Positions 15,060 to 57,185 of a stretch of DNA of 64,000 bases are shown piece by piece. Position 1 is the first letter of the stretch. Every line of letters begins with the position of its first letter. Origin of the DNA: a virus; the IMG/VR virus record IMGVR_UViG_3300045988_172839, positions 96,001 through 160,000 of that record; one strand, given 5' to 3'. Both the position numbers and the translations under genes were made by a program. The notes under the pieces were generated by a model. That model made no database searches. It was not told where the DNA came from and saw nothing but the letters and a program-made list of their open reading frames with translations.

Positions 15060-15088
15060 ACATAAAACCTCACAAAACCTCACAATAG

Positions 15089-15622: not shown

Positions 15623-15639
15623 CTTGTTTTCACCTCAAT

Positions 15640-16214: not shown

Positions 16215-16229
16215 ATAATACCCCTCAAA

Positions 16230-39370: not shown

Positions 39371-39400
39371 TCAAAAGAACCCCAACCGAAGTTGAAGTTC
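39371..39400 (-). terminator. intrinsic terminator, UUCG loop
   Basis: GAACUUCAAC-UUCG-GUUGGGGUUC then TTTTGATTTT. Confidence 0.75.
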
Positions 39401-39415
39401 TCTAGCAAGAAAAAC

Positions 39416-39944: not shown

Positions 39945-40208
39945 TTAATCCCAAGGCATTGTTTGGTCAATAGCTTTCAATTCCTCATAAAATTGAGAGC
40001 CATTTACTTCCTGATACCCCCAAGTAGTTAGGTCTTTAACAACCCATGACAAATCTGACTTCTTCGCTACTGTAATCTCAGAAAAAGCTGAAATTGGCGC
40101 GCCTGCTCCATAAGAAGTACCTGTAATCACTAACTTACGACCGTCTGGGAGAATGACTGCTTGTACATAATGATCTTTGTATTTTAATCTAATTCCTCTT
40201 GTTGTCAT
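39945..40208 (-). CDS. hypothetical protein, paralog of 39646..39924
   Basis: see the partner entry. Confidence 0.65.
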   Translation of the reverse strand: MTTRGIRLKYKDHYVQAVILPDGRKLVITGTSYGAGAPISAFSEITVAKKSDLSWVVKDLTTWGYQEVNGSQFYEELKAIDQTMPWD

Positions 40209-40227: not shown

Positions 40228-40653
40228 CTAATCTTCCCAATAAACAAAACTTCTCAAATTGAGATACAACGCATCTCTAAAAGCTACTACGCGACTTTGA
40301 CTTGAGATACCAAGAATTAAATCTACCAAACTCGTTTTGACTCCACTCAAAGGTATATCTACTTTTCGGTTTGTTTTAGTCTTATCTACATAGTATAAAT
40401 GTACCCAAGGGGCATCTTCTTTGATATAAACTTGAATAGTGAAGGGTTGAAGAGCTTGATTATCTAATGTAACCAAATCCATGTACAGAGCGTTTTCGCT
40501 CTGTGAAGTGCGATATGTTAAACCTAAACGAGAAGATCCTTTTACAAGTCTTCGAATATCAACAGGTAGACCGTGTTTCGCCATAGACTGACAAACCGTA
40601 AACAATTCTTCTAAGAGAGCTTGTCTCTCTTTATTTTTAAACAAAGTTTCCAT
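40228..40653 (-). CDS. small paralog family, group 2 (loose member)
   Basis: start ATG 40653 (METLFKNKERQALLEELF) with AAAGGTG RBS; N-terminal K.(R/Q)..L..L helix and C-terminal VVAFRDALYLNL helix as in groups 3 and 4. Confidence 0.55.
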   Translation of the reverse strand: METLFKNKERQALLEELFTVCQSMAKHGLPVDIRRLVKGSSRLGLTYRTSQSENALYMDLVTLDNQALQPFTIQVYIKEDAPWVHLYYVDKTKTNRKVDIPLSGVKTSLVDLILGISSQSRVVAFRDALYLNLRSFVYWED

Positions 40654-40665
40654 ACTTAACACCTT

Positions 40666-41121
40666 TCAACAATAATCTTGAATAGCTGTCAAACCTAACC
40701 AATACGCTAAAACTAGGTCTTTCTTACGAATATAAGGTAACAACTGTTTAGTGAACATAGTTGGACTCATTTGTAAATCATCCCAATCACAACGAAGACT
40801 GAAAGACTTACCAAACCAAATTTCTCCAGTTTCTTTAAACGGACGACTTGTAAGCTCTACAACTTGTCTGCTACCACCAAATTTATCAACTTTGATATTG
40901 TGGTAGTCAACCCCAACTGTATCTTGCAAGGTAAAAGAAATCGTCCCCTCAGAGCAACCTACCCAAATCAAATATTCACCTCTGGAGGGGGAGGAGATAC
41001 CAGTAGGGAATTTACCCATAGGATAAGTAGATTGACCCTCTAAATACTTCAAGAAGAAATTTAGTTTCTCTACTACCAACTCTTCGAGTTGGTCTCTTTT
41101 TAGTCCTTTGTATTTACTCAA
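40666..41121 (-). CDS. small paralog family, group 2 (loose member)
   Basis: MSKYKGLKRDQLEELVVEKL N-terminus, LVLAYWLGLTAI C-terminus. Confidence 0.5.
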   Translation of the reverse strand: MSKYKGLKRDQLEELVVEKLNFFLKYLEGQSTYPMGKFPTGISSPSRGEYLIWVGCSEGTISFTLQDTVGVDYHNIKVDKFGGSRQVVELTSRPFKETGEIWFGKSFSLRCDWDDLQMSPTMFTKQLLPYIRKKDLVLAYWLGLTAIQDYC

Positions 41122-41584
41122 ATCTTATCTCCTCAACTACATCAAAACCGAAACCCGAAGAACGAACACCTAAATTTAAGCACTCAACTTGTTTAAGGGT
41201 TGCTACATTTTCAACTAGAGAAGTTAAAATATGGTTTAAATCATAATCAAGTAAGTTGGGGAGGTAATACTCATTTGAAACACGCTTTCGTTTTCCTGTT
41301 TTAGTATTACATGACACACTTTCAAACGTACCTCTATCCAATTCCTTGTCGAAATAAATCAGTATTTCATGAATCAAGTCGGTATCTAAGTTTGTCTCAA
41401 TCGTGTTTTTCAAGAGTCTTAGTCGAAATACAGAATCTTTTAGTAGAATTTGAGTTTTATACCTGACTGAGACTTGGGATACCGAACTCATAGGTTTAAT
41501 TTCAGCACCACTTACAAGTAACTTAAACCCCTGATATAAATAGTACCAAAATTCTGTTGTCTGCTTGTTAGTTAATCTATTCAT
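41114..41584 (-). CDS. hypothetical protein (156 aa)
   Basis: ATG ORF in the same array; family membership uncertain. Confidence 0.55.
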   Translation of the reverse strand: MNRLTNKQTTEFWYYLYQGFKLLVSGAEIKPMSSVSQVSVRYKTQILLKDSVFRLRLLKNTIETNLDTDLIHEILIYFDKELDRGTFESVSCNTKTGKRKRVSNEYYLPNLLDYDLNHILTSLVENVATLKQVECLNLGVRSSGFGFDVVEEIRFE

Positions 41585-41616
41585 TGCACTTAAACCTCAA
41601 CTATATCTTTCTTAGT

Positions 41617-42087
41617 TCAATCCTTATCGTAATCTTTAAAATCAAACCCATACATTTTGTCGATTACATCTCTCTTAGTTTTAAAATTTCTGTAATAGCA
41701 CGTAATTCTCTTACCTCTATTAGTTACATTGATAAACCTATATTTACTTAAGTCCAATGTATCTAAGTATGACAACAAATGGTCTAAGTAGTTCTCAATA
41801 AACCATACAAAGTCTTGCTTACTTGCCTTAATGTTGACAATCAAATATCCCTCATAAATATCGTGGTATTGATTATCCGCAGAATGGTTAGACAAGCGAA
41901 CTTGGTAGTAATCATAGTTCTTATAGGCACTGTCTAAATGACTAGAGATAGACCAACCGTGCTGAGAAAGTTCATCAAAAGCTTGACTCAACTCATCCAT
42001 AGCTTGTTCGTATTCCCTACGTTGAGTATCACTTCTATTAAAACTACGTTTTCTATAAGCGTTATATCTGCTTTTTCCATAAGCCAT
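41617..42087 (-). CDS. hypothetical protein
   Basis: start ATG 42087 (MAYGKSRYNAYRKR) with GGAGG RBS; basic N-terminus. Confidence 0.55.
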   Translation of the reverse strand: MAYGKSRYNAYRKRSFNRSDTQRREYEQAMDELSQAFDELSQHGWSISSHLDSAYKNYDYYQVRLSNHSADNQYHDIYEGYLIVNIKASKQDFVWFIENYLDHLLSYLDTLDLSKYRFINVTNRGKRITCYYRNFKTKRDVIDKMYGFDFKDYDKD

Positions 42088-42108
42088 ATTTACCTCCAAA
42101 ATTTAAAC

Positions 42109-42522
42109 TTAATCTTCCAAAGCACTCAAGAAACAAGCTACTTGAAAATCCGTAGAAATCGACTCTACCAAAATCTCAAAACCACGTGTAAATTGTGGAG
42201 TTCCTTTTGCTGCATATTGGACAATATGCTCCAAAGTTTTAGCTGGTAACTCACTTTCTGGTCTATAAAGACTACCTGAGAAGAAAACATCTAAGTCTGA
42301 AGATACCGAAATGTGTAAATCATGAACTCGTTTACCTGATTTCTTATTTTCCAACGAAAGGTAAACTAAGTCTTTTGCAAGTTCTACATAAACTAAGTAT
42401 CTATCAGAAACCTCGATTGTTTCTCCGCTAACTTCATCTGCTAAACCAATAACCTTATCAAAGGTTTTCTCCAAGGTTTGTTGGAGTTGTTGTCTTTTAG
42501 TGTTGCTCATCTTCTTGCTCAC
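42109..42522 (-). CDS. small paralog family, group 2 (loose member)
   Basis: TKRQQLQQTLEKTFDKV N-terminus, QVACFLSALED C-terminus. Confidence 0.5.
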   Translation of the reverse strand: MSKKMSNTKRQQLQQTLEKTFDKVIGLADEVSGETIEVSDRYLVYVELAKDLVYLSLENKKSGKRVHDLHISVSSDLDVFFSGSLYRPESELPAKTLEHIVQYAAKGTPQFTRGFEILVESISTDFQVACFLSALED

Positions 42523-43489
42523 TTTCTAAAGCTATTTTAATCTGCTCCGCAATCCTTGATACCACCGGTACCGCAACGCTATTCCCCACTTGTTTGTACA
42601 AGTGACTATTTGCCATTTTCTCTGGGAACTTATACGAACGAGGGAACCCTTGAGTGTTAAAGCACTCTCTTGGAGTCATTTTCCGAATATCACCACCAAA
42701 GGTACGAATAATAGGTACAATGTTACCACCCATACCCATTCCTGCCATCAGAGTAGGTACTACTCCACTCTTATTTTCACGGACATATTGACCTCTTCTG
42801 TACTCATAAATTGAATTACTAGAAGTAATCTCAGAGTCTAATAAAGGATAGTAGTGCTTATCTTCACGGTAATAAAAGACCTCATCTACTGGGTTTTCAA
42901 AGTCAATTACATCATGAATCCTAACTGTTAAAGATATTTCTTCTGGGAAAACAAATCTATCGGAAACTTCTTTATCTCTGAAACCGACTATGTAAATACG
43001 TTCTCTACCCTGAGGGATATTGCCATACTTAGCTGCGTTTAAAACTTTATAATGAACATAGTAACCTAAGTCCTCCAAAGTCTGCAAAATCACTTTAAAT
43101 GTATTTCCTTTATTGTGACTAACTAGGTTCTTTACATTTTCTAAGAAAATTACTTTAGGTTCCTTTTCTTCAATAATGCGAGCTAACTCAAAGAATAAAT
43201 TTCCTCTACCTTTCTCATCATGGAAACCTTGTTAATACCCCGTTATGGAGAACGCTTGGCAAGGAAAACCACCCATAATAACATCAACATTTGGAATATC
43301 TGAGGCTGAAACTTCTTTAATGTCTCTACCATCCAACTGAACATGAGGAAAGTTTAAAGCAAAAGTTTCTCTCGCTTTTTCATCAAATTCATTTGCGTAG
43401 ATTGTTTTAAACCCTTGTTCTTCAAACCCTAAATCAATACCTCCTACTCCTGCAAAGAAGGAAGCACACGTTAATTCTAAACTGCTCAA
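42497..43489 (-). pseudogene. DNA (cytosine-5) methyltransferase interrupted by one in-frame TAA
   Basis: FFAGVGGIDLGF (motif I), GGFPCQAFSITGY, then TAA (43232-43234), then in the same frame QGFHDEKGRGNLFFELARIIEEKEPKVIFLENVKNL...PQGRERIYIVGF...YKQVGNSVAVPV. The stop sits where the intact paralog has R/K (SIAGQRKGFED). Confidence 0.8.
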
Positions 43490-43503
43490 AATTTACCCCT
43501 AAT

Positions 43504-43908
43504 CTAATTTGTGTAAGCCAACAAAACCTTTAACCCTTTGATAAAGGCATCAACAAAGGCTACTGTAGGTATATTCTCTATGTAGTTGCGAATGATGGAT
43601 AACGAGAGGTTGTCATATCTTTCGTAAGGTATCCTATTAGAAATCTCTGTTTTAGGGTAACTATTGCTTGTAATGTACCAACCATTTAATCGCTCTACCT
43701 TGTAATCGTAAGCATTGAATGAAATACTATGTGATTTCTGTCCCATACGAACTACAATTCCTAAGTAAGTCCAAGGCGTATCTTGAACCTCAAAATAAGT
43801 ATTATCCGAAACTTTGAACAAACCATACACTTTAGCACCTGTGCTATGTAGCTGATGTAGCCGATACAGTAACTCTGCTAATAAATCTTTCTTTTCACCA
43901 ACAACCAT
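43504..43908 (-). CDS. small paralog family, group 3 member
   Basis: EKKDLLAELLYRLHQL N-terminus, VAFVDAFIKGLKVLL C-terminus. Confidence 0.6.
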   Translation of the reverse strand: MVVGEKKDLLAELLYRLHQLHSTGAKVYGLFKVSDNTYFEVQDTPWTYLGIVVRMGQKSHSISFNAYDYKVERLNGWYITSNSYPKTEISNRIPYERYDNLSLSIIRNYIENIPTVAFVDAFIKGLKVLLAYTN

Positions 43909-43949
43909 TCATCTGACCTCTAAAACTTCAAATTTAACTGATCTTGTAA

Positions 43950-44372
43950 CTACCACTTAACCATATCATTTGTCAAAACAACTAAATCTAAAGAAGTACA
44001 CAAGTTTGTAAGGCGTTCTTTAGATGTAATTGAGTTCACAATCGCATCTAACTCAGAACCACCCAAAATCAAACTATTTTTATTTACAAAGATAGTAAAC
44101 ATAGTAGAAGTATCTATTTTATTGTTAAGATGAGACCAACCACTCACGCTATATACATCCCCATAGTCATCCACAGAGAAGTAATAAGCAAGGTTATCTT
44201 TACAATAAAGCCCAACATAAAACCCTTTAAGATGAGTTTTATAAGAAAGTGTATATTTTCTATTGTTTAAAGGTCTTTGCGTGTCCTCATAAGATACAAA
44301 TTTGGACACTTCTTCTAGTATGTTCTCAACTGATCTTTTAAGACGTTTCACTTCTTTATCTGTAAACTTCAT
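43950..44372 (-). CDS. small paralog family, group 3 member (close paralog of 44873..45310)
   Basis: RPLNNRKYTLSY / LPLNNQKYTYSY and SITSKERLTNLCTSL / SISSKERFINLYTAL. Confidence 0.7.
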   Translation of the reverse strand: MKFTDKEVKRLKRSVENILEEVSKFVSYEDTQRPLNNRKYTLSYKTHLKGFYVGLYCKDNLAYYFSVDDYGDVYSVSGWSHLNNKIDTSTMFTIFVNKNSLILGGSELDAIVNSITSKERLTNLCTSLDLVVLTNDMVKW

Positions 44373-44387
44373 ATTTTAACCTCTCTC

Positions 44388-44864
44388 TCAATCTAAAACC
44401 ATATCAAATTTAAACCCATAAAACTTAGTCAGTATAACAGAAATTAAAACATCTAGTTCCATTTCAAACTGTTGTGATAAAGGTATTGAAACCTTCTCTT
44501 CAATCGAAATTGGAAGTTCATCACAAGAAAGATACCCTCTCATGGTTTTATAGGGAACCAACTCAAACCCTTGAGTCTGACATTTGAAGAATTGAATAAC
44601 TCGAACTGAAGTTAGTTTCTTCTCAGTAAACTTAATTTCCACATGAAAGTTCTCCGTAGTTTTAACAACTATTTGGGTCTTCCCTACAAAATTTACCTCA
44701 GTCACATTTAGAAAAGGTACTAAACGCAAAAGAAGTTCTTCTGTCAGAGTCCACTCTCCTCTTTGTATAGAATAAGCAATAAAAGAGTCTCTGTTGAAAA
44801 TATAAGGGTTGTAGGGAAAAGTAACCCCATCTGACACAACTAATAAACCATCTTTTGAATACAT
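44388..44864 (-). CDS. hypothetical protein
   Basis: likely start ATG 44864 (MYSKDGLLVV) with GAGG RBS; not obviously part of the family. Confidence 0.55.
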   Translation of the reverse strand: MYSKDGLLVVSDGVTFPYNPYIFNRDSFIAYSIQRGEWTLTEELLLRLVPFLNVTEVNFVGKTQIVVKTTENFHVEIKFTEKKLTSVRVIQFFKCQTQGFELVPYKTMRGYLSCDELPISIEEKVSIPLSQQFEMELDVLISVILTKFYGFKFDMVLD

Positions 44865-44872
44865 CTTAAACC

Positions 44873-45310
44873 TCAGTCTTTCCACTCAAGAAAGGTATTG
44901 TTTTGAGAAACTAAACATAAAGCAGTATACAAGTTTATAAAACGCTCTTTAGAGGAAATAGAATCAATGATAAGGTCTAAATCTCCCCACGTGATACACT
45001 TATCTGATAAGTCTATAAATAATGTAAATGCGTTTGAGTTATCTGGTTTACCTTTAAAGTAAGACCAACCTCTCATCACATAAGCGTCAGAATCAGAATC
45101 TAGCTCAATGTAAAAATAATAAGCATCTCTACCCTCACAAAATAAACTAACATAAAGTCTGTTTACATCTTGAATATAAGAGTAAGTATATTTCTGATTA
45201 TTTAAAGGAAGTTTCCCATCTTTATGATGTGTAAGTTTAGGTAAGTCTTCCAGTAAACCGTTAATTACTGTCCCAAAGCGACATAGCTCTTCAGATGTTA
45301 AATTCATCAA
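44873..45310 (-). CDS. small paralog family, group 3 member (close paralog of 43950..44372)
   Basis: see 43950..44372. Confidence 0.7.
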   Translation of the reverse strand: MMNLTSEELCRFGTVINGLLEDLPKLTHHKDGKLPLNNQKYTYSYIQDVNRLYVSLFCEGRDAYYFYIELDSDSDAYVMRGWSYFKGKPDNSNAFTLFIDLSDKCITWGDLDLIIDSISSKERFINLYTALCLVSQNNTFLEWKD

Positions 45311-45720
45311 TCTACCTCCATCATTAACTCTTTCAAAGCATTTAAAAGTACACGTGCCATCTCATCAGAACTTATAAACTCAATTAAATCTTCGAACTTA
45401 CTCAAATTCTTTGTTTTAAACTCTTCATAGTTTAACTTAAATCGAACCTCTTGATACTCACCATCTTTTGTGTAACCTTTACGGATGCTTCGGCAATAGA
45501 CATAATCGTCTTCAAGGTCGAAATTTAAAACATGCTCTCTACCTACATTATAAGTATACAAAGTAAGCTCAATTTCAGAACCCTCTCTCAGAAAGCGAAA
45601 CTCATAAATAAGTGAAGTGTCAAAAACTACCCCATATTCATAAGGTTCTCTATCCCACTCTTTACGCAGAAAATTTACTAAATAATCATTTAATGCTTGT
45701 CTATTTTTCGTTAAAGTCAT
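45307..45720 (-). CDS. small paralog family, group 3 member
   Basis: start ATG 45720 (MTLTKNRQALNDYLVNFL) with GAGGT RBS; C-terminus ARVLLNALKELM. Confidence 0.6.
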   Translation of the reverse strand: MTLTKNRQALNDYLVNFLRKEWDREPYEYGVVFDTSLIYEFRFLREGSEIELTLYTYNVGREHVLNFDLEDDYVYCRSIRKGYTKDGEYQEVRFKLNYEEFKTKNLSKFEDLIEFISSDEMARVLLNALKELMMEVD

Positions 45721-45722
45721 CT

Positions 45723-46232
45723 CTATACCTCGCAAAAATCATGAATATTTGTAAACAATTTAGGTAAACCTTTATAAAAAGCATCAAGCACCTCAGATTT
45801 CTGAATAGCACTCAATAAAACCATCAATTCAGAGTGTTTAACTTCAGTAACACTAATTTGCTTAGCTAAATGATTTTGAGGTCTTCCTCTATAACAAGGA
45901 ACACTCAAACCTGAAAAACTAGGAGAAAAACCAATGCCTGTACCATTTACCTGCGTACTTGAAGATACCACTTCTTCACTTAAAGTTAAACGATGTACTA
46001 AAGTATTAGTGCCTTTCCGATAAACATCAAAGTTTAAATCAACTAATAATGTATTCTCCAAAGGCATAAACATATTTGAAAATTCTACATTGTATAAAAA
46101 ATTACCTTCAGCACTAAACTGAATATCATATCCCATAAATGTATCAAAATGCTTATCTAACTGTTTATATAACTTATCTAATGCCTGTAAGCAAAAATCT
46201 AACTTTTCTACTCTTGAAACTCGAACACCCAT
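45723..46232 (-). CDS. small paralog family, group 3 member
   Basis: PCYRGRPQNH and VLDAFYKGLPKLF match 46740 (PFFRGKPKEW, VLNAFYLGLPEIL) and 47705 (LPYSRGKALD). Confidence 0.7.
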   Translation of the reverse strand: MGVRVSRVEKLDFCLQALDKLYKQLDKHFDTFMGYDIQFSAEGNFLYNVEFSNMFMPLENTLLVDLNFDVYRKGTNTLVHRLTLSEEVVSSSTQVNGTGIGFSPSFSGLSVPCYRGRPQNHLAKQISVTEVKHSELMVLLSAIQKSEVLDAFYKGLPKLFTNIHDFCEV

Positions 46233-46270
46233 AATGTCAACCTCATTTATTTAATCAACTAACTAAACAG

Positions 46271-46702
46271 TTACATAAACTTCATGTACTGCAAACCTTC
46301 TAAGTAAGCTAAAACCTGCTCATCAGTTAAAGAGTTAACTACTTCTACAATATCAGAACGACTAAACTCTTTCGTATAGTTTATGGATGTAACATCTACA
46401 ACACTAGAACTTCTCCCACCTACATCATACTTAAATGCTTTAAAACTATACAACAAATCCCCAGCTTCAATCATTTGTAAACCAATAATTAAACTACAAT
46501 GTTGTTTCCAACGTTTACGCGTGTATAGAGTAAAAGAAATAGATAAATTTGTATAATTCTCAGTGATACCCCACCCAAAAGTTAAACGATCATTTACCTC
46601 AACCATAGGAGGAACTTCCGGAAACACAGTCGATTGAATGTGTAAACCTCTAATCATATTATCCAAAACTTCTACTAATTGTGTTCTATCTTTATAAGAC
46701 AT
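46271..46702 (-). CDS. small paralog family, group 3 member
   Basis: YKDRTQLVEVLDNMIRGL N-terminus, VLAYLEGLQYM C-terminus. Confidence 0.6.
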   Translation of the reverse strand: MSYKDRTQLVEVLDNMIRGLHIQSTVFPEVPPMVEVNDRLTFGWGITENYTNLSISFTLYTRKRWKQHCSLIIGLQMIEAGDLLYSFKAFKYDVGGRSSSVVDVTSINYTKEFSRSDIVEVVNSLTDEQVLAYLEGLQYMKFM

Positions 46703-46739
46703 ATTTTAAACCTCATTTACTTAAATCGTGACCTTTATC

Positions 46740-47237
46740 TTATTCAAACCTTAAATCAGGAAGTTTCTTAACTTTATTCAAAATCTCTGGTAAACCTAAA
46801 TAAAACGCGTTTAAAACTGCATTAGATTGGATACCCTCGGCAATGAGTCTAGGTGCAAACAAAGCCAAAGTATCACTAGACATAGAACCAACTCTTTCCC
46901 ACTCTTTAGGTTTTCCTCTGAAGAAAGGACTACTATAACCAAAATAAGTATCTGAGTTAGCTGAAGGTTCAATAGCTAACCAAATGCGATGTTGTATAAG
47001 GTAAGAAGATTTACTCACAACTTCAATACTAACCTCCCCTGCATCATTATTACCTTTATTTGGTTCAGTAAGTGTAACTTTTAAGAAATGAGTAGAATTT
47101 ACATCCAATGCCAGATCATACTGTGGAGAGCCGATGTAGTTTCGTTTAAATTCCTTATTTCTAAGTTTTATAACATAAACTGCTAATTGCTCTAAACTTT
47201 TAATACAAACCTCTTGCTTTTCTTGTTTTGTTACCAT
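46740..47237 (-). CDS. small paralog family, group 3 member
   Basis: see 45723..46232. Confidence 0.7.
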   Translation of the reverse strand: MVTKQEKQEVCIKSLEQLAVYVIKLRNKEFKRNYIGSPQYDLALDVNSTHFLKVTLTEPNKGNNDAGEVSIEVVSKSSYLIQHRIWLAIEPSANSDTYFGYSSPFFRGKPKEWERVGSMSSDTLALFAPRLIAEGIQSNAVLNAFYLGLPEILNKVKKLPDLRFE

Positions 47238-47257
47238 AAGTTAAACCTCTTATCTCT

Positions 47258-47701
47258 TTACGGATTGCGCAACGGAATCTTGTTTAAAGCTATTTTGAAA
47301 GCTTTTGCATGTGATTTAGGCATAGATTCTACAAGTTTCTGTACTTCTTCCTCAGATATCTCAGATTCATAAACCTTAACATACGATTTATCGTGGTCAA
47401 ATTCCCCAAATCGTGTAAATGGAAAAGTACCATAATCGAAAGTACAACCCATGTTGTAATTTAAACCTACAAACAACTTTCTAACTGGTTGTTTAGTTGT
47501 TTGAGAAAGCAAGGTCACATGCAAAGAAACGTTACTGTTTTGATGGTTCAGACTGTAAGCCACATGAAACCCACCTGAGACATCAAAGCCAATTAACCCA
47601 TTTATGTCAGTATAGGTACTAGGACTAAGTTCATAACCAACTTGTCTTAGTAGTAAGACCAACTCCTTTTGGTCTTTTGTTAAAATTGTCAACTCAAACA
47701 C
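47258..47701 (-). CDS. small paralog family, group 3 member
   Basis: TKDQKELVLLLRQV N-terminus, AKAFKIALNKI C-terminus; start is GTG 47701 or TTG 47692. Confidence 0.6.
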   Translation of the reverse strand: MFELTILTKDQKELVLLLRQVGYELSPSTYTDINGLIGFDVSGGFHVAYSLNHQNSNVSLHVTLLSQTTKQPVRKLFVGLNYNMGCTFDYGTFPFTRFGEFDHDKSYVKVYESEISEEEVQKLVESMPKSHAKAFKIALNKIPLRNP

Positions 47702-47704
47702 CTC

Positions 47705-48184
47705 TCAATCACTAAACATCTTATTGTATTCAATTAAACCACAAGCTCTTTCTAAGCACGCAACTAATGGAGTAAGCAAATTATCTCTTTTATAGCTTGT
47801 CAGAACCATCTGACGAATATATGTCTCAAATGGAAATTGTGTTGTGAAACTAACTTTCAAATCATCCAAAGCCTTACCTCTACTATAAGGCAAGCTTGTA
47901 AAAGCACAATAATCAATCGGATTGTTTGAAGTCTCTGGTATATAAGCAACTTCAAAACGATGTAAAGTCGCTCCCAGTGAAGTTAAAAGACTGATACCGA
48001 AAGTTATTGAGGTTTGAGTGCTACTAAACTCTATCAAACCTTTATAGTTTTCATACTCTTTTAACTCAAACAAAATTTCAAAAGGTTTTCTATCCTGAAA
48101 ACTTAAAGTGAGTTGGTTATGTATAAGTTGCAGTCTATTTACTATTCTGTCTAGTTTTTCTTCTTTGGATTGTCTTTTAATCAA
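47705..48184 (-). CDS. small paralog family, group 3 member
   Basis: TTG start with GAGG RBS; SKEEKLDRIVNRLQLI N-terminus, LPYSRGKALDD core. Confidence 0.6.
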   Translation of the reverse strand: MIKRQSKEEKLDRIVNRLQLIHNQLTLSFQDRKPFEILFELKEYENYKGLIEFSSTQTSITFGISLLTSLGATLHRFEVAYIPETSNNPIDYCAFTSLPYSRGKALDDLKVSFTTQFPFETYIRQMVLTSYKRDNLLTPLVACLERACGLIEYNKMFSD

Positions 48185-48194
48185 ACTATAAACC

Positions 48195-48647
48195 TCACAT
48201 TTCCTTCAAACTTGGGTACAACAAGTAAAGATACCCCAAAAGTGCTTTCCCTAAGTAATCATATTTCATAAACTCTAACAGACCAACCAAATCTTCAAGT
48301 CTGCCATTTGGAGAAACCTCAAAATGATTAACCTCAGTAATCTCACCTTTTGAATCGTAATGATGCACTTCTACAAAAACAACATAAGGTTCAGTCGGTT
48401 CAGTTAAAACATCTAAGTAATTTGTAACAACCAACTGGAAAGTCATCCGTTTACTTCGATTGTAAAAACGTAAATGGAGATTTGGGTTGCGTCTTGTAAT
48501 ATCGTTATAAATCGAACCGATAATCTTACCATCACTTGTCATAGGCATTTTTGGTAAGTGTTTATTCAACACTTTACTACTCAAAAAATCTTGAATCAAA
48601 GTATCTAAACCTAAACGCAAATGGCAAAACTCTTTGTCTGATAACAT
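48195..48647 (-). CDS. small paralog family, group 3 member
   Basis: likely start ATG 48647 (MLSDKEFCHLRLGLDTLI); C-terminus GKALLGYLYLLY. Confidence 0.55.
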   Translation of the reverse strand: MLSDKEFCHLRLGLDTLIQDFLSSKVLNKHLPKMPMTSDGKIIGSIYNDITRRNPNLHLRFYNRSKRMTFQLVVTNYLDVLTEPTEPYVVFVEVHHYDSKGEITEVNHFEVSPNGRLEDLVGLLEFMKYDYLGKALLGYLYLLYPSLKEM

Positions 48648-48813
48648 CTTTACTACCCCACTAAATTTCAAGCTACAACAAGCAATCAAAACTTCAATTT
48701 AATTCAAATCTTATAAATCAAGTTTACTACAAAAATTGAAAAATTGCAAGGATTTCACATAAGAAATTTTGATTAATTTGACAAGAATAAAAACAAAACA
48801 AAGCAATATAAAA

Positions 48814-48837
48814 GAGCAGTATAAAATTATACCACTC
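48814..48837 (-). terminator. intrinsic terminator ending the FEN/methyltransferase operon
   Basis: GAGTGGTATA-attt-TATACTGCTC then TTTTATATT. Confidence 0.55.
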
Positions 48838-48859
48838 CATTATGTGTAAGTTCAAAATC

Positions 48860-49327
48860 TCAATCTTCTAAGTCTAAATCTTTGTCTTCTGGACCAAGAA
48901 TACCGTAAGAAAGTAGAGCTTGCATGTGGTTCTGTACAAAATCTCGAACTTGAGGATGTTCTCTCTCTATTTCTTCAAATTCTTGGAACTGTAAGCTTGT
49001 AAGCACTCTCTCCGTTACAATACGCATGAAATTGAAAAACAATTCCTTTGTGATTTCATCTTTTGATAGACCAAAAAATTCAAGAGACTTGTCTTTATCA
49101 AATAAACCGATACCTTGTTTCAATAGAAGTTCAAAAATTGGATATAAATTCTCCCTAGGAATAGCAACAAAAGAAGTAGCAGACAAAGTATCATCTTCTG
49201 TTCCAAACAAAGAAAGTTCAACCACACCTTCTAAAGTATCTTTCTTTTTCAAAATGCTTTGGTTGAACTTCATAAGGTTCTTCAACACCTTATCTCGAAC
49301 AGTATGTCCAATTTCCATTCTTTCCAT
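48860..49327 (-). CDS. acidic protein family member (155 aa)
   Basis: EREHPQVRDFVQNHMQALLSY matches IQEHPELVDFLDSHMSSMVY of 58332..58838; acidic tail. Confidence 0.65.
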   Translation of the reverse strand: MERMEIGHTVRDKVLKNLMKFNQSILKKKDTLEGVVELSLFGTEDDTLSATSFVAIPRENLYPIFELLLKQGIGLFDKDKSLEFFGLSKDEITKELFFNFMRIVTERVLTSLQFQEFEEIEREHPQVRDFVQNHMQALLSYGILGPEDKDLDLED

Positions 49328-49888: not shown

Positions 49889-52114
49889 TTAATCTTCTAA
49901 AGATTCATAAATTCGTTTAAATAAGACTTCCAAACAAGGAACTGCAATCGAGTTACCTGCTTGTTTGTATAACTGCAAATCTGATAAACCTGTCTCTTTT
50001 GCTTTTTGGTAGTCTTCGTAAGAGAACCCCATAAACTTCCAACACTCGCCGGGAGTCAGATACCGCATAGAATAAAAACCACTTAAAGGTTTCTGCTCTT
50101 CTGTCTGATTATCAGACAACATCAAAGCCAAATTGAACAATCCTTGAGGTTTGTTTACAATTTTCTCAGACAACCATAATACGTTTGGGTCTTTTGCAAG
50201 TTCTTCTCGTGTTGAAGAAAGACCACGCTCATATTCTACAAATGGACGAGCTAGAGGGTCACTTGCATCTGAAGGGTACAACTTAGACGGAACTTCACAA
50301 CCTACACCCTCTACAACTGTTTTAGGGTACTTATAGTCAGAAGCCAACATGCAGCTTACTTTCCCTGTCGGAAAAAGGCACTGAGTTCGCATTCCAATCG
50401 ACTCTTTAATGGTTGAAAGGTCTATGTCTTCTAAACCTTGTTCTTTCAATTTGTCGATTTTGTAATCAACTGGAACGTTAAAACGACCGAGGTAATGCAC
50501 GATACCCTTATCTCTTAACTCATAAGTAAAGCGGTCAATGTTATACTGCTTGTGCCACTTCTTTGTATCTAATTCACTACCTAACAAGGGAACCATAGTT
50601 GAACCATTATCAAATCCATTTGGAAAACGATACGGTTTATGTTTCCCTAAAATAGAGACTACGAAAATACGCTCTCTATTTTGAGGGAGTCCAAAGTCTT
50701 TTGCATTAAGGACTCCATAGTAGTTTGTATAACCTAAACCTCTCAAAAAGGAGAGCCAAGAGTGAAACCCATCTCGAAACTTAGCACTGTTTAGAGCCTT
50801 TACATTTTCTAATAACAAAACCTTTGGTTTCTTACCCTCAATCAATCGCTGACACTCCCATAAAAGAGAAGACGAAGTTCCTGAACCCTTTTCAAATCCA
50901 CGTTGTTTTCCTGCAGAACTTAAATCCGTACAGTTGTGTACAATACAGTTCTAAACAGTAAATGAATGATTATCTTTGACACTAATATCATAAACACTAG
51001 CTTTGTATGGAGTGTAACTAGCCGACTCTACGGATACCCAAACATAATCATCCTCAAAAATCATAGAGTTTGATTTAGTTTCCAAGTCACTAAACTCGAT
51101 ACGATAGTGTTCGTTGATAGACTCGCTAATTGTAAACGGTACTTTGTAAGCTTTCAACACTAACTGACTTATACCGTAGAACAATTCTTTACCTGTAACA
51201 AATAAAGTAGAGGTAAAATCTACGGTTTGTCCTGAGACCCTCTGGTAGCCCCATAGAAGCGCTCGAATTTGTTGTAAGGGTAAATCTACCCACTGAGATT
51301 GAAAATGCAATCTGTGCCGTTTTAAGGCGCTCTCACGCAAATAATTTACAAGAGCGCAATTTCGGATACGGAACTCAAGCTGTGAGTTACCTAGTTCTAA
51401 ACTTGAAGTATCAAACAACCCCTCAGTTAAGTCTCTTAATAAGTGATAATGTTTATTATCTACTTTCAAAATCAATTCTTCGCCCTTTACCATGAAAGGA
51501 TAAACAAGTAAGACACCTAATAAGCGCCAAAAATCTAAGTTCTCAAAATGGCTCTCTAGTGATGGATACCCTTGTGGGAGTTTAGACTCTGAGTTAATTG
51601 GAAACCCTAAGTAATCTGAGGTACTTAGCTCCCTCGCTTCTTTCCATTGTGGAGAGTTTAAACCCTCTTCAGATTTACTACGCACATAAAAGGGATGGTT
51701 TTCTGTGGTTGAAATATCTCTCGTAAGTTCTGAACTTACTGAAAATAAAGGCTTTAAACCTTGGTTATAAAAAGCAGTAACCTCTTTATATTCACCTGTG
51801 TGAGTTAAAACCGAGTCACCTACAACCACATTCTTAATAGGAACGTAACCTTTGTCTTTTACAAAGACTAAAGAATCTCCTGTGAAACAAGGGAAAGAGT
51901 AAGTAAACAAATCAAAATCTGGTAAATCCTCTGGCCACAACTTTGAAATGTCTCCAAAGTTAGGAGTTTCCCCATGAATAGCTTCATAAGCCTGATGGGC
52001 GAATTTGTCAATTTCGGATACACCGACTACTTCGTAATCAACACTTAAATTTCTCAGAGCCATGTGTTGAGAACCAACTCCTGCAAAGGCTTCGAACACT
52101 TTTAAATGTACCAT
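49889..52114 (-). pseudogene. DNA (cytosine-5) methyltransferase with an intein at the catalytic Cys and an in-frame TAG inside the intein
   Basis: N-extein MVHLKVFEAFAGVGSQ (motif I)...FTYSFP; intein CFTGDSLVFV...SVKDNHSFTV-TAG-NCIVHN; C-extein CTDLSSAGKQRGFEKGSGTSSSLLWE...LLLENVKAL...PQNRERIFVV...YKQAGNSIAVP. The two track ORFs 50951..52174 and 49889..50845 are in the same frame. Confidence 0.8.
50933..51889 (-). mobile_element. intein (318 codons plus one TAG) in the C5 methyltransferase
   Basis: Cys codon 51887-51889 starts CFTGDSLVFVKDKGYVPIKNV; the HN dipeptide ends at 50933-50935; +1 Cys codon at 50930-50932; TAG at 50951-50953. Confidence 0.75.
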
Positions 52115-52118
52115 ATTG

Positions 52119-52337
52119 TTAGCTAATCTCCTTTGTGAACATACCGCGAACTCCATCAAATCGACTGCCGACATTAGGGTATACTGCTACCAAGATTGTG
52201 TTTTCCTTCAATTCATCACTCGGAAACCCTTTATCTTGTAATCTGTTATAAGTACCAAAGGACACTCGATCTACTACCGTAAAGTCGAAACCTTTCTCTT
52301 CACCCTCCATTGGAGAGAAAATTAGTGTATATTTCAA
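52119..52337 (-). CDS. hypothetical protein (72 aa)
   Basis: ATG ORF; its last codons carry the AAGGAG RBS for the methyltransferase start at 52114. Confidence 0.55.
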   Translation of the reverse strand: MKYTLIFSPMEGEEKGFDFTVVDRVSFGTYNRLQDKGFPSDELKENTILVAVYPNVGSRFDGVRGMFTKEIS

Positions 52338-53743: not shown

Positions 53744-53751
53744 TATGTAAT

Positions 53752-54213
53752 CTAATCTTTCAAATCCAATAAGTTAGTCGCAACTCCTACATAGTAAGAA
53801 AACTCAGAAAGTAAACCAACCGTTTCAAACCCTTTAAACAAACCTTGAATCATTGAATCCACTGCTTGCTCTGGGAAGTTGTTTGCTAACTTCAAGTAAT
53901 CGTCAAAGGTAGCGTTTGGGGTGTTCAAGTCGAGCGTGTCGCGGGCGATACCCCTAAAGTAATTCTCTACAGAAATGTAACAATGACCTTGAGGTTGGTA
54001 TTGCATGAGAATACTTGCGAAAGCACAATCACTGCCTTTGCGCCACAAGTGGAAAGTTAGTTCATCTGGGCGGATATAAAGGTTAAACTTATCATTCACA
54101 TCTCTCTTGAATGGTCGAGAAGTGTTGTAGTTCTCAACCCAATTAGAGTAAACCTTCTCTGTTGCCATAATGACAATCGCTAGTTGTGTTCTGTTGTCTA
54201 GTGTTTGGAACAT
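53752..54213 (-). CDS. small paralog family, group 4 member
   Basis: CYISVENYFRG and FSYYVGVA match LYISMEYYRRG and FSYYLGVA of 54289..54759. Confidence 0.7.
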   Translation of the reverse strand: MFQTLDNRTQLAIVIMATEKVYSNWVENYNTSRPFKRDVNDKFNLYIRPDELTFHLWRKGSDCAFASILMQYQPQGHCYISVENYFRGIARDTLDLNTPNATFDDYLKLANNFPEQAVDSMIQGLFKGFETVGLLSEFSYYVGVATNLLDLKD

Positions 54214-54288: not shown

Positions 54289-54759
54289 TTATCGTTTTAA
54301 TTCGTACAACTCATAAGCTACACCTAAATAATACGAGAAGTCAGGATAGTAACCAAGTTGCTCAAAGCAAGAGTATACTGCTTTAATGGTCTTGGGAAGT
54401 GTGTCTTCTTGGAAGTCTTTAACAAAAGCTAAATAAGTTGTAACATCAACCTTATTAAACGTAGTTTCAAACAATCTCAAAGTTGAACCTCTTCGATAAT
54501 ATTCCATAGAAATATATAAATCATTACCTTCTGCAAACTTAGAAGTTACTAGGAAATTGCTATAAAGCAAATCGCTATTTCTACGACAAATATCAAGGTT
54601 AAAGGATTGATTATCTAACCGAAGTTGCACATTAGAAGAACTAACATTTAACGGTTCGTTCAAATTACCATAATCATAAAGACGTTTGTAAAGTGCAGCA
54701 GAAGCCATTAAGATTAAAGCAAATTGCTCTTTCGAACTTAAAGAGTTAAAACCGGACAT
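54289..54759 (-). CDS. small paralog family, group 4 member
   Basis: start ATG 54759 (MSGFNSLSSKEQFALILMA) with AAGGAAGGGG RBS. Confidence 0.7.
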   Translation of the reverse strand: MSGFNSLSSKEQFALILMASAALYKRLYDYGNLNEPLNVSSSNVQLRLDNQSFNLDICRRNSDLLYSNFLVTSKFAEGNDLYISMEYYRRGSTLRLFETTFNKVDVTTYLAFVKDFQEDTLPKTIKAVYSCFEQLGYYPDFSYYLGVAYELYELKR

Positions 54760-54773
54760 AGGATACCCCTTCC

Positions 54774-55676
54774 TTATTTTACATAACCAAGGCTTGCGTA
54801 TGCAGACCAAAGACCTACTTTTGTAATCAAGGACTCAAACTCAGTAACGAACCCTAACGTATACTCACATGAAATTAAACCTGAAAGACGGTCTGCGTCC
54901 TCATAGAACAAACCTACTTCAGTAAATGAATCTAAATTCCCATTTTGATTTGAAAGTCTGTAAAGATAGTGATCTCGATCATCTGTTGGTACAATCGTAA
55001 ACGTAAAGTAAGCTTTATTATCAATTAAGACAGAATAAGAAAGACCGGCTTTGTTGATAGTCAATAAGGAAGTTGGGGTTGTTTCTGCATAACTTTGTTC
55101 ATCCAACATAGAATGTAATAAGAGAGTCTTATAAAAATCAGAAATGCGAAGGAATGTAGTTCTTAGTTCTTTTCTTACATCTACCTTTGTTGCGTGTTTT
55201 CGCTTTGCTAACTGTTTAGCAGTAGGCATATACTGAACTGAAGTAGATAAGAAATGATTAAAGTTTTGAGACCATGTATTATCAGCATTGAAAATGTCAA
55301 GAATACCACTCACAAAGGGAGCTAAATATTCTGAAGGAAGTTCTGCTGCTAAACGCTCGAAATCGCTATGCGCATTGAAGATACCGCGTGTTACATTTTC
55401 AAACTGAGGGTTATTTCTAACGTAAGGAGTCACTGCAAAGCTGAGTTTACGGTCTTTGTTAAATGTAAAACTAAACGTGAACCATGTCAAATAATTTTGT
55501 CTTAGTACATTTACAAAGCAACCATGGTTATCAATGTTTACTATCACTTTGTTGTTATCAAATTCAGCCGTAGCTGGTCCGTTTAGTTCTCGTCTAAGTT
55601 TCTCCCATGTATCAACCAAAGCAGTTGCTACTAATGCAAAACGTTGTTCTTTTGTATAGGGTTTCAAATCAATCAT
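54774..55676 (-). CDS. small paralog family, group 4, apparent two-domain (fused) member
   Basis: 300 aa, twice the family size; first half starts TKEQRFALVATALVDTWEKL and contains FAVTPYVRNNPQF; the second half repeats the layout. Confidence 0.55.
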   Translation of the reverse strand: MIDLKPYTKEQRFALVATALVDTWEKLRRELNGPATAEFDNNKVIVNIDNHGCFVNVLRQNYLTWFTFSFTFNKDRKLSFAVTPYVRNNPQFENVTRGIFNAHSDFERLAAELPSEYLAPFVSGILDIFNADNTWSQNFNHFLSTSVQYMPTAKQLAKRKHATKVDVRKELRTTFLRISDFYKTLLLHSMLDEQSYAETTPTSLLTINKAGLSYSVLIDNKAYFTFTIVPTDDRDHYLYRLSNQNGNLDSFTEVGLFYEDADRLSGLISCEYTLGFVTEFESLITKVGLWSAYASLGYVK

Positions 55677-56170
55677 TTTAGACCTCCATTAAAATCTGTC
55701 CAATGTACAACTTGATTAAATTCTTTGTTCAAACGATTTAATTCATCTTGTAAAATCAGTTGCAACTCAAATAAAGATTCATAGAAACTTAACCGTTGTG
55801 AGTTACTGATTGGATAGTAAAACTGTCGAACAAATTCATGCCATTCAGAGTTGTACTCTTTAAGTAAAGACTCTTTAAACTCAAACTCTACCTTACCATT
55901 ACGATAAGAACGAAATGCAGCGGAGAAAATTAAATCTGAGGATACCCCATTGATTACTTTGGATTGTCTAGTAATAGCAAGAGTTGTACTTGGTAAACCG
56001 GTAGTTCGATAAGTTACTAAAGTGAACTCTTTAAAGTTTATAGTATAAGCAAAACTAGAACTCTCTGAACTAAACTCAAAGTTTTGAAAAGGGAGTAAGT
56101 CAATCCAAGTGTTTACGACTAGGTTTAGTATTTGATACAAGTCAATCGGCTCAAGTTGTTTAGTTGCCAT
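55673..56170 (-). CDS. small paralog family, group 4 member
   Basis: DLYQILNLVVNTWIDLL N-terminus, AAFRSYRNGKVEFEF core. Confidence 0.6.
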   Translation of the reverse strand: MATKQLEPIDLYQILNLVVNTWIDLLPFQNFEFSSESSSFAYTINFKEFTLVTYRTTGLPSTTLAITRQSKVINGVSSDLIFSAAFRSYRNGKVEFEFKESLLKEYNSEWHEFVRQFYYPISNSQRLSFYESLFELQLILQDELNRLNKEFNQVVHWTDFNGGLK

Positions 56171-56639
56171 GTGAAATACCCTCTCTAAACTCTACTTCTC
56201 TATCCAACTGTGTAAGAACATCTCTTAAAGTCATTTCTAGTGCAAAACGTTGAGACTCGTTTAACTGAGCAACAATTTCTGAAACATAAGGGTACCACAT
56301 ATAAGAGTCTGTACCTAAACTATCTCTCCAAAACTCAAACTGCACCTTATCTCGATTGAAAAAGCGCACACCTGACTTAATTTCATAATCAGCAACACCA
56401 TTAACCCAAAAATCATAAGGAGGGCAATTCCCATCCAATCGAATTGAAATACTTAGGTTTAGGTGTCCATTCCCCCTAAAAGTAGTTACAACTAATGAGG
56501 AATTGTTTGCATGAATATCATAAGAAGGAGAATTAAATCTAACGATGAACTGTGGAAATCTACGACCCTCCAACCAACGGTATAGAACCTTTTGAAATAA
56601 ACTATTTAATTTAACTACTTCTACTTCTGATTGAACCAT
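56160..56639 (-). CDS. small paralog family, group 4 member
   Basis: LNSLFQKVLYRWLEG N-terminus, FFNRDKVQFEFW core (compare YRNGKVEFEF in its neighbour). Confidence 0.6.
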   Translation of the reverse strand: MVQSEVEVVKLNSLFQKVLYRWLEGRRFPQFIVRFNSPSYDIHANNSSLVVTTFRGNGHLNLSISIRLDGNCPPYDFWVNGVADYEIKSGVRFFNRDKVQFEFWRDSLGTDSYMWYPYVSEIVAQLNESQRFALEMTLRDVLTQLDREVEFREGISHGN

Positions 56640-56643: not shown

Positions 56644-57120
56644 TTAACCTCCAATCCAACCGTTGAGAACCGCAAAGCGGTGTTGATAACCCTGAAACTG
56701 TGACTCTAAACCAATCAACGTAAAGAAGAAAGGTAAAGAGCGTAGAATAGAAACATACGCAGGTTGCGGAACAACATCTAGTAAGACTTTAAAATCTTCT
56801 ACCGAGAAAGCAACTCCTTCGAGTGCTTTTGTATCCACTAACTTACCATGAGAGTAGTTTTGAACCATCAAATTCAACTCTAAACCATTGTCTGCGACTG
56901 TAAAATACAAAGACACAAATGGTCGTCCTAACTGTCTTAAGACGGTGTAACTAAAGGTATTTGAAGTACAGAACCATTCTACTCCGTCTTGTTTTAAACC
57001 GTCAGCGCTAATGCTTTGTAAGTACCTAGAGTTATCAAACCAAACTTGAAAGGCAGAGCGCATTGCTAATAAAACTTGTACATTCTCTGGTAATTCGTTG
57101 ACATATTGTGCCATCATAAC
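56644..57120 (-). CDS. small paralog family, group 4 member
   Basis: start ATG 57120 (MMAQYVNELPENVQVLLAMRSAFQVWF) with GAAGGAG RBS; promoter 57157-57185. Confidence 0.6.
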   Translation of the reverse strand, partial: VMMAQYVNELPENVQVLLAMRSAFQVWFDNSRYLQSISADGLKQDGVEWFCTSNTFSYTVLRQLGRPFVSLYFTVADNGLELNLMVQNYSHGKLVDTKALEGVAFSVEDFKVLLDVVPQPAYVSILRSLPFFFTLIGLESQFQGYQHRFAVLNGWIGG

Positions 57121-57156
57121 TTTCTTCTCCTTCAATCTCAAAATCTTGTTAAAAAT

Positions 57157-57185
57157 AGTATAACAAATGGAGAGAATGTTTGCAA
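57157..57185 (-). promoter_or_regulatory. sigma-A-type promoter of paralog group 4
   Basis: TTGCAA-17-TATACT. Confidence 0.6.

Follow-up and report, generated by a model that had tools for sequence, protein, structure and literature searches.

Analysis of a 64,000-nucleotide stretch of the IMG/VR virus record IMGVR_UViG_3300045988_172839 (positions 96,001 to 160,000, hereafter the window) revealed, with high confidence, one lineage-restricted superfamily of proteins of about 135-170 amino acids (aa) that is encoded by 20 genes and shares a predicted fold. The superfamily arrays lie in a single block and in one orientation with a homolog of the anti-CRISPR protein AcrIIA5 and four DNA methyltransferase genes, which makes the superfamily a strong candidate for a novel anti-defence toolkit. 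The carrier is probably a circular element of roughly 230-293 kb from oral streptococci, without a cultured representative.

Twenty genes of the window form one superfamily

The genes of the window, taken as open reading frames (ORFs) of at least 80 aa with gene-like character, are all on the minus strand, with a GC content of 33-41% (about 36% overall) and a GC skew that is negative throughout. An earlier note on this DNA had described four arrays of small ORFs, and these are present as tight, operon-like runs of adjoining minus-strand ORFs of 134-198 aa each, at 14487-16694, 40228-42522, 43504-48689 and 53752-57141 (arrays 1 to 4; single ORFs are named below by their lowest coordinate). The motif pairs quoted in that note are all found in the translations, and GAGG-type ribosome-binding sites (RBSs) precede most superfamily members.

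To compare the small ORFs, we pooled the ORFs of 104 related loci (relatives of the window DNA, numbered L001, L009 and so on) with database homologs, built one profile per window ORF and aligned 34 small ORFs all against all with hhalign. Each profile was also run against the reversed profiles of the others, a null of the same depth and composition. With the final profiles, 55 real pairs reached E<=1e-4, as against none of the 561 reversed-profile pairs. At this threshold 19 genes form one connected component, consisting of 15765 in array 1, of 40228, 40666, 41114, 42109, 43950, 44873, 45307, 45723, 46271, 46740, 47258 and 47705 in arrays 2 and 3, and of 53752, 54289, 54774, 55673, 56160 and 56644 in array 4. 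A twentieth gene, 43504, joins only at E<=1e-3, with an alignment of 116 columns. The alignments of real pairs are mostly co-linear and longer than 100 columns; the links between arrays are co-linear and near full length (45723 to 53752, E=4.5e-7 over 126 columns), as is that between 43950 and 45723 (4e-6 over 122 columns). The demonstrable superfamily thus comprises 20 genes with 21 domains (13 genes in 40228-48689, six in 53752-57141 and one in array 1) and covers about 9.6 kb, or about 15% of the window, short of the roughly 24 members over about 15 kb that had been proposed.

All members are on the minus strand. In array 2, 40228..40662 is the hub of the network, with links to 42109 (E=9e-14), 45307 (5e-6) and 46271 (8e-6), and 42109..42522 is a second hub, linked to 46271 (1e-9) and 45723 (6e-8); an iterative hidden Markov model (HMM) seeded with 42109 pulls in 40666, 41114 and 45307. 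The other two members of this array, 40666..41121 (42109, 1e-41; 46271, 5e-5) and 41114..41584 (42109, 7e-37), attach to the second hub. Array 3 holds the probable member 43504..43908 (40228, 3e-4 over 116 columns; 42109, 3e-4), the close paralogs 43950..44372 and 44873..45310, linked to 45723 at 4e-6 over 122 columns and 7e-6 over 124 columns, respectively, and our structural reference 45307..45735 (42109, 1e-37). Next to the latter lies 45723..46232, which bridges to array 4 through 53752 (4.5e-7, 126 columns) and 54289 (7e-7) and is also linked to 46271 (1e-11). The array further contains 46271..46702 (46740, 1e-12; 47258, 2e-58), 46740..47237 (53752, 5e-6), 47258..47701, whose presence is variable (45723, 2.5e-12), and 47705..48184 (46740, 1e-39). 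Array 4 begins with 56644..57141 as its first gene (53752, 3e-34) and includes 56160..56639 (53752, 7e-6), 55673..56170 (53752, 1e-5 over 119 columns), the tandem two-domain protein 54774..55676, the variably present 54289..54810 (45723, 7e-7) and 53752..54213 (45723, 4.5e-7; 56160, 7e-6). The sole member in array 1, 15765..16214, is linked to 55673 (2e-5) and 56160 (3e-5), and matches the array 4 profile with E=1e-25, this profile itself including 15765.

The paralog pairs that had been called firm are real by BLASTP (43950/44873, E=4e-30; 53752/54289, 2e-16; 55673/56160, 5e-9; 45723/46740, 5e-7), as is the pairing of 15089 with 16230 (3e-6); the grouping of 47705 with 45723 and 46740 was recovered by hhalign with deeper profiles (E=1e-37 to 1e-39). 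A first, shallow profile pool searched by BLAST and iterative HMMs gave pairs and triplets only, and the wider links needed the addition of divergent loci. The suggestion of one superfamily hence holds for 20 of the approximately 34 small ORFs, given profile-profile links beyond the reversed controls and the same predicted topology in two models, and fails for the rest. Array 1 in particular belongs to it through 15765 alone, its ORFs 14487, 15089 and 16230 being a separate family.

Pairwise identity between subfamilies is just 12-24% and most links required profiles, as might be expected if the similarity were an artefact of unrelated small ORFs with alike composition or secondary-structure periodicity, or if the ORFs were non-functional. 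Such an explanation is exceedingly improbable, as the reversed profiles never reached the threshold passed by 55 real pairs, independent models give the same predicted topology, and the ratio of nonsynonymous to synonymous substitution rates (dN/dS) is far under 1 in every member. For the 19-20 linked genes it is effectively refuted; an artefact is possible for the unlinked ORFs 44388 and 48195 and for the three array 1 ORFs of the separate family.

A predicted two-layer fold without close structural neighbours

AlphaFold2 (AF2) modeled 45307 with a predicted local distance difference test (pLDDT) value of 90.6 and a predicted template-modeling (TM) score of 0.86. The model shows a helix at residues 10-27, six consecutive antiparallel strands within residues 32-102, and helices at residues 103-107, 112-119 and 124-140. 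The model of 54774, generated from an alignment of array 4 sequences only (pLDDT 87), displays two modules in tandem, each with a helix, six strands and further helices. The same topology is therefore seen three times in two independently built models, namely in 45307 and in each half of 54774. The predicted fold of the superfamily is two-layered, with an N-terminal helix followed by a beta-meander of six antiparallel strands and then by two or three helices at the C-terminus, in agreement with the layout of N-terminal helix, beta-rich middle and C-terminal helix that the earlier note had read from the translations. Its description of 54774..55676 as a two-domain fusion is likewise borne out by the AF2 model and by the homology of domain 2 to the 53752 family (E=2.6e-6 over 117 columns); the length of the fusion is constant across the clade (300-301 aa), with orthologs 66-99% identical.

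No Pfam, PHROG or NCBIfam match was obtained for superfamily members in a scan of every array protein, and no relative was found among PDB sequences with the superfamily profile. Foldseek searches of the PDB gave no neighbour at E<=1e-3 for either model. When the 45307 model was compared with BFVD, only weak matches to uncharacterised proteins, mostly from jumbo phages (N1M2, pTD1, GAP32, RaK2), were returned; the structural matches are not significant, with TM-scores of 0.2-0.6. A similar architecture is that of p32/gC1qR/MAM33, which has the same order of elements (N-terminal helix, consecutive antiparallel strands, C-terminal helices). This architecture ranks with the top PDB matches of one model (6szw, probability 0.54, best Foldseek E=0.035, TM-score 0.29) but low for the other (1yqf, rank 20, probability 0.28, E=0.42). 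The superfamily differs from it in having six strands instead of seven and no acidic bias, and with TM-scores of 0.17-0.29 and E>=0.03 the models do not superpose significantly; the resemblance is at the level of architecture only.

Between paralogs, only core hydrophobic residues, one histidine (H68) and one tyrosine (Y88) are conserved, which is not an enzyme signature. The isoelectric points of the members range from 4.6 to 8.7, without bias.

An AcrIIA5 homolog and DNA methyltransferase genes among and near the arrays

The ORF at 41617..42099 (minus strand) lies inside array 2 and was rejected as a superfamily member (hhalign against the superfamily profile, E=0.11). Judged by its sequence, it is a genuine homolog of AcrIIA5. 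In a phmmer comparison with PDB 6lkf_A (E=8.8e-53), its residues 5-146 align with chain residues 1-140, that is, over the full length of AcrIIA5 from S. thermophilus phages and including the basic N-terminal segment; it also matches phrog_14794 (E=1e-61), and at the DNA level it is 69-71% identical to acrIIA5 from Streptococcus phages. Translation probably begins at the ATG at 42087 (MAYGKS...). In the alignment, the segment MAYGKSRYN.YRKRSFNRS..QRREY is nearly identical to that of 6LKF, and a nuclear magnetic resonance study of AcrIIA5 reportedly found this conserved, basic and disordered N-terminal segment to be essential for Cas9 inhibition. Unlike the protein of 6LKF, the ORF has a 14-residue C-terminal extension, and its carrier is a giant element and not a siphophage of about 40 kb. 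The homolog points, independently, to a Streptococcus host with a type II-A Cas9.

The acrIIA5 gene forms an exact one-ORF cassette between members 42109 and 41114. It is absent from L001, L004, L006, L007, L014, L016 and L019, and in L007 the same spacer and RBS run from the 42109 ortholog directly into the 41114 ortholog.

Four DNA methyltransferase genes accompany the arrays, and together with AcrIIA5 they form a one-strand cluster of the anti-defence island type, all on the minus strand. The first, a C5 cytosine methyltransferase at 42497..43489, is cut by an in-frame TAG into ORFs 43232-43489 and 42497-43093, which both match Pfam DNA_methylase; the lesion is one CAG to TAG change relative to the intact 330-aa allele of L009. 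This is the only disrupted gene in 40228-48689, and the frameshifted family member that had been reported is not there: the disrupted gene is this methyltransferase, with a nonsense change. A second C5 methyltransferase, at 49889..52174, carries an intein (Pfam DNA_methylase, Intein_splicing and Hint). It is split into two ORFs in the window (50951 and 49889; 407 and 318 aa) and is one ORF of 741-761 aa in L009, L010 and L012, with an intein-free allele in L001, where the window segment 50932-51888 is missing. The others are a C5 methyltransferase at 30601-31719 (DNA_methylase, E=5e-84) and an N6/N4 methyltransferase at 32119-32943 (phrog_67, N6_N4_Mtase). For none of the four was a recognisable partner restriction enzyme found among the window proteins.

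The 18 ORFs in 40228-48689 accordingly comprise 13 members, one AcrIIA5 homolog, two methyltransferase fragments and two unlinked ORFs (44388 and 48195). The absence of recognisable function that the earlier note had stated for this range fails for the range as a whole, since the AcrIIA5 homolog and the methyltransferase fragments lie inside it.

A few larger intergenic gaps hold promoter-like and terminator-like sites, as located by a consensus scan only. A sigma-70-like promoter candidate (TTGAAC-18-TATAAT, extended TG) occurs on the minus strand at 48826..48855, in a 170-bp gap upstream of arrays 3 and 2, and a terminator-like hairpin with a 13-bp stem and a T run at 39374..39403 (minus strand) would end the unit that starts near 48855. 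Another promoter-like site is present upstream of array 4 (57157..57185, minus strand), with a terminator-like hairpin closing that unit at 53727-53744. These sites suggest two transcription units, from about 48855 to about 39374 and from about 57185 to about 53727.

The methyltransferase gene at 42497 and the member 42109 overlap by 26 nt (42497-42522), and a small frame change could fuse both. The 192-aa database protein P0150 consists of the C-terminus of a C5 methylase fused to a 42109-like member.

A lineage-restricted family with gene turnover under purifying selection

In a collection of 5.8 billion proteins, every superfamily match lay on a metagenome contig, the longest of 293 kb. A profile search run exhaustively on 1.84 billion cluster representatives gave 35 matches, of which 34 had a window member as their best match and one was spurious. 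The 54 orthologs of 46740 (54-98% identity) are likewise from metagenomes only. None of the GTDB representative genomes carries the element or the superfamily in two scans, and nothing near-identical to the window was found among public phage records. By these searches, the superfamily is confined to one lineage.

Relatives of the window show 80-90% DNA identity and differ by the presence or absence of single genes: AcrIIA5, 47258 and 54289 vary, with 47258 missing in L001, L004 and L007, and the window segment 54213-54774 (54289) missing in L001, L003 and L007. Alleles have also been replaced, as for 41114, which is 62% identical in L001 between neighbours of 91-93%. The copy number of subfamilies differs between relatives, and three 40228-like copies are present in L001, L006 and L016.

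In every member the dN/dS of orthologs lies between 0.07 (53752) and 0.33, with a median of about 0.17. All members are under purifying selection, and related elements retain conserved orthologs of each paralog. By comparison, the exonuclease and the intact methylase give 0.05-0.06, about threefold below the superfamily. The description of the family as fast-evolving is therefore apt in that its dN/dS is about three times that of these two genes, but the range of 0.07-0.33 is clearly purifying, and a strongly positively selected family is rejected on these values.

Genes for IS605-type TnpB (Cas12f1-like TNB) occur at differing sites in or beside the arrays of relatives (L014:4047-4883, L019:4345-5586, L020:16060-17301), that of L019 interrupting the intein-containing methylase region.

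The carrier resembles the Inocles of oral streptococci

Identical or near-identical contigs of 230-250 kb were found in human oral metagenomes, and related contigs reach 293 kb. From one contig to another, the genes follow a circularly permuted order at consistent spacing. The sequence examined, i.e. the window with about 40 kb of flanks, represents about 105 kb of the 230-293 kb element. The recognisable genes in the flanks encode a UvrD/RecD-like helicase (UvrD/AAA_19), a DNA polymerase III clamp loader subunit (DNA_pol3_delta2), a RecJ-like DHH protein, HU, an actin-like partition protein, a primase, TnpB and another methylase.

These features recall the Inocles, circular plasmid-like elements of 245-395 kb from oral Streptococcus (S. 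salivarius) that are lost in culture (Kiguchi et al. 2025, PMC12340149). Inocles are rich in insertion sequences (IS) and unknown genes, encode LPXTG proteins, an exonuclease, DNA polymerase III and a RecD-like helicase, and have a GC content of 32% (delta 24%); their markers are VirB4, VirD4 and the single-copy InoC of about 454 aa, with an N-terminal PF13814 replication-relaxation domain (PMC12340149). The paper makes no mention of the present gene family, of any anti-CRISPR or of any methyltransferase (PMC12340149). The element shares with Inocles an origin in oral metagenomes, a probably circular form of hundreds of kilobases, absence from isolate genomes and mostly unknown genes, as well as replichore-like co-orientation with constant GC skew, IS/TnpB genes, LPXTG proteins, an exonuclease, a polymerase III subunit, a RecD-like helicase and about 89% identity within the group.

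Scanning with Pfam and PHROGs detected no capsid, portal, terminase, tail or type IV secretion system (T4SS) gene in the approximately 105 kb, and neither sortase, penicillin-binding protein nor gyrase was seen among the scanned proteins. An Inocle-type giant plasmid-like element is more likely than not, and clearly more probable than a jumbo phage, which we consider the less likely alternative, albeit a serious one. Against an Inocle it has to be weighed that the InoC marker (PF13814), VirB4 and VirD4 were not found in the same 105 kb, that the GC content of the window is about 36% as opposed to 32%, and that IMG/VR lists the contigs as viral. The 464-aa ORF at 62197-63591 has no significant Pfam match. 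The large-phage frame of the earlier note, which this IMG/VR classification would favour, is doubtful because no virion gene occurs in the 105 kb and because of the resemblance to Inocles (PMC12340149).

Two big LPXTG surface proteins are encoded on the minus strand at 5462-11713 and 2420-5194, one of them a 2083-aa antigen I/II-type adhesin with six AgI_II_C2 repeats. Phages do not usually carry such adhesins, which are typical cargo of streptococcal conjugative or Inocle-like elements. Upstream of the window (L020:804-2024, L045, L059), the MreB/actin-like partition protein, DHH protein, HU, clamp loader, primase and helicase make up a self-contained replication and segregation set. About 18 kb past the high-coordinate end of the window, the relative L059 (IMGVR_UViG_3300008403_000001) has a 1.2-kb ORF-poor gap at 8090-9268 with short tandem repeats, among them perfect (AGGTCTG)x6.6 and (AGAAAAC)x9, which may be iteron-like or hypervariable; within about 1.3-1.8 kb of the gene adjoining this gap, at least six IMG/VR contigs break off.

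A possible role of the superfamily against host defences

We propose that the superfamily would serve as a diversified, non-enzymatic binding scaffold, in which every paralog would have a host protein of its own to bind and neutralise, most probably one that belongs to a system of defence against mobile genetic elements, and that the members would be co-expressed with AcrIIA5 and the methylases during establishment of the element in a newly entered Streptococcus cell. The paralog surfaces are diversified, and the arrays are physically interleaved with the anti-CRISPR and the methylases. In the anti-defence islands of conjugative elements, orphan methyltransferases and anti-CRISPRs cluster with uncharacterised genes, and anti-defence functions are enriched among the uncharacterised genes beside them (Samuel and Burstein 2024, PMC11541004). 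By the same logic we tentatively, and with slightly less than even confidence, regard the members as anti-defence or establishment binders. The analogy with anti-defence arrays in the earlier note is thus strengthened by the AcrIIA5 cassette between members and by four methyltransferases without a recognisable partner restriction enzyme, with the function of the members themselves still conjectural.

The block shares with the islands of conjugative plasmids a co-oriented cluster of anti-CRISPR, orphan DNA methyltransferases and uncharacterised small genes, together with cassette variability (PMC11541004). Unlike in these leading-region islands, most of the uncharacterised genes here are paralogs of one fold, in 20 copies, and the element measures 230-293 kb.

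Several observations weigh against an anti-defence role. No member has a functional link from homology or experiment, the role being drawn from neighbourhood and evolutionary pattern alone, and the gene-wide dN/dS, well under 1, gives no arms-race signature at the level of whole genes. No single-stranded DNA promoter hairpin of the Frpo type was detected upstream of the arrays, the folds of 48685-48865 and 57135-57515 having z-scores of -0.22 and -0.86 against shuffles, and neither an oriT nor a relaxase was located in the sequence available; both points count against a literal leading-region reading. Moreover, the block encodes dihydrofolate reductase (DHFR), RNase H, a Fic protein, the small subunit of ribonucleotide reductase (RNR), a 5'-3' exonuclease, a ProQ-like protein and the two LPXTG adhesins, and with DHFR, RNR and RNase H it is not purely an anti-defence island.

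The presence of DHFR, RNR, RNase H, Fic, the ProQ-like protein and adhesins would also fit adaptors that modulate the host or maintain the element without a link to immunity, acting on host transcription, replication, envelope or stress, with AcrIIA5 and the methylases adjacent simply because the whole region would hold accessory or early genes in general. That the orthologs are stable and under purifying selection is compatible with such housekeeping-like roles for the element, and Inocles have been proposed to provide stress-tolerance and cell-wall functions (PMC12340149). We nevertheless rate this explanation as rather unlikely, since 20 surface-diversified copies of one fold and the turnover of cassettes between close relatives are more typical of conflict genes, and since the anti-CRISPR cassette sits inside an array itself.

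Internal proteins of T4, paralogous inner-body proteins of jumbo phages and establishment proteins translocated by T4SSs offer analogies for another explanation, in which the members would be transfer- or particle-associated, either as chaperone-like adaptors or as cargo that travels with the DNA. The combination of a small alpha-beta-alpha module and terminal helices is reminiscent of secretion-chaperone-like architectures, BFVD returned weak matches to uncharacterised proteins, mainly of jumbo phages, and the contigs are classed as viral. However, those matches fall short of significance, the proteins lack signal and processing motifs, and neither virion nor T4SS genes were found in the approximately 105 kb around the arrays, which makes this possibility improbable.

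Orphan immunity islands are typically tandem arrays of diverged alpha+beta proteins of 140-170 aa, and the habitat of the host is rich in contact-dependent antagonism. The arrays could on these grounds be an acquired collection of immunity proteins that counter interbacterial toxins (e.g. LXG toxins of the type VII secretion system) and protect the host of the element; the earlier note had likewise seen a resemblance to immunity-protein arrays. This is more improbable still and we disfavour it: no Imm, SUKH or DUF600 match and no other Pfam or NCBIfam immunity family was obtained, the window contains no toxin gene or domain, and the superfamily is found only in the present lineage (34 of 35 representatives) and not beside toxins in bacterial genomes, the GTDB scans being empty.

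If the proposed binding scaffold is pursued further, the members may form a modular set of inhibitors, comparable to an antibody or ankyrin repertoire, that radiated in Inocle-type elements, with each paralog disabling a different Streptococcus defence or exclusion system and the arrays acting as landing pads into which foreign anti-defence cassettes such as acrIIA5 are exchanged. We put this extended proposal forward as doubtful, though more than idle speculation.

Multigene families of large DNA viruses, takeover modules of large phages such as SPO1 gp37-60 and the paralog arrays of jumbo phages are further systems for comparison. These systems have in common with the arrays many small, tandem, co-oriented and lineage-specific genes with strong RBSs and no assigned function. 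They differ in that the present superfamily has no sequence relation to any PHROG and no virion genes nearby, and the takeover genes of SPO1 are mostly unrelated to one another, whereas the superfamily has one fold.

Unlinked ORFs, separate families and neighbouring genes

ORFs 44388, 48195, 49328, 38828 and 16881 were considered as superfamily members and rejected, being unlinked even with the global family profile; the same applies to the pair 39646/39945, the acidic trio 48860/57510/58332 and the array 1 ORFs 14487/15089/16230. The small ORF at 44388..44885 (minus strand) lies within array 3 (E=0.58 against the global family profile) and is a real gene, given its dN/dS of 0.13. On the same strand, 48195..48689 is the first ORF of the array 3 transcription unit (E=0.55, dN/dS 0.11). 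Neither has a match in Pfam, PHROG or the PDB.

The paralog family of 14487..16694 (minus strand), with 15765 interleaved, was linked by iterative HMM and gives E=0.015-0.03 against the superfamily profile. Its members (14487-15083, 15089-15622 and 16230-16694) share with 15765 only a stretch of about 28 N-terminal residues (M.Y.DL...). BLASTP within the window further revealed the families 48860/58332 and 39646/39945, which the earlier note had not singled out. The former extends, by BLASTP and HMM links, to an acidic trio flanking the arrays (48860..49327 on the minus strand, 57510-57950 and 58332-58838; net charges -11, -16 and -24), whose members could be DNA mimics; no Pfam match was found for any of the three, no PHROG match for 48860 and no PDB sequence match for 58332. 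The latter is a tandem pair of paralogs of about 90 aa just downstream of array 2 (39646-39924 and 39945-40208, minus strand), with 52% identity over 44 residues, and is present in three to four copies in L012 and L013.

A Fic/DOC-family protein (33338-34069, minus strand; E=6e-6), a possible AMPylating effector or toxin, is encoded a few kilobases downstream of array 2. The RNR small subunit (19981-23013, minus strand) reaches 1010 aa owing to the insertion of one or more inteins (Hint and LAGLIDADG). Among 52 further window proteins, Pfam domains were found in just eight.

Significance

Mobile elements are already known to carry accessory or anti-defence islands, and in this sense the region is of a known kind. 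New are the fold family, not described before and without a characterised relative, its expansion to 20 copies within one bacterial element and, likely, its location on a recently found and almost unannotated class of giant oral elements. Single-fold multigene families of 20 copies are uncommon in bacterial mobile elements and recall those of giant eukaryotic viruses. Anti-defence islands are the main hunting ground for inhibitors of bacterial immunity, and the window offers an easily tested set of candidates in 20 homologous proteins whose fold is predicted with confidence, with a genuine anti-CRISPR as their anchor. If the element is an Inocle, a class reported in about 74% of people and almost unannotated, the block would be the first anti-defence module described for it and the superfamily its largest gene family. 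Should the members indeed be an inhibitor scaffold, one previously unseen fold would lie behind an entire set of new anti-defence activities, and would go some way towards explaining how an element of 250-400 kb persists in most human mouths.

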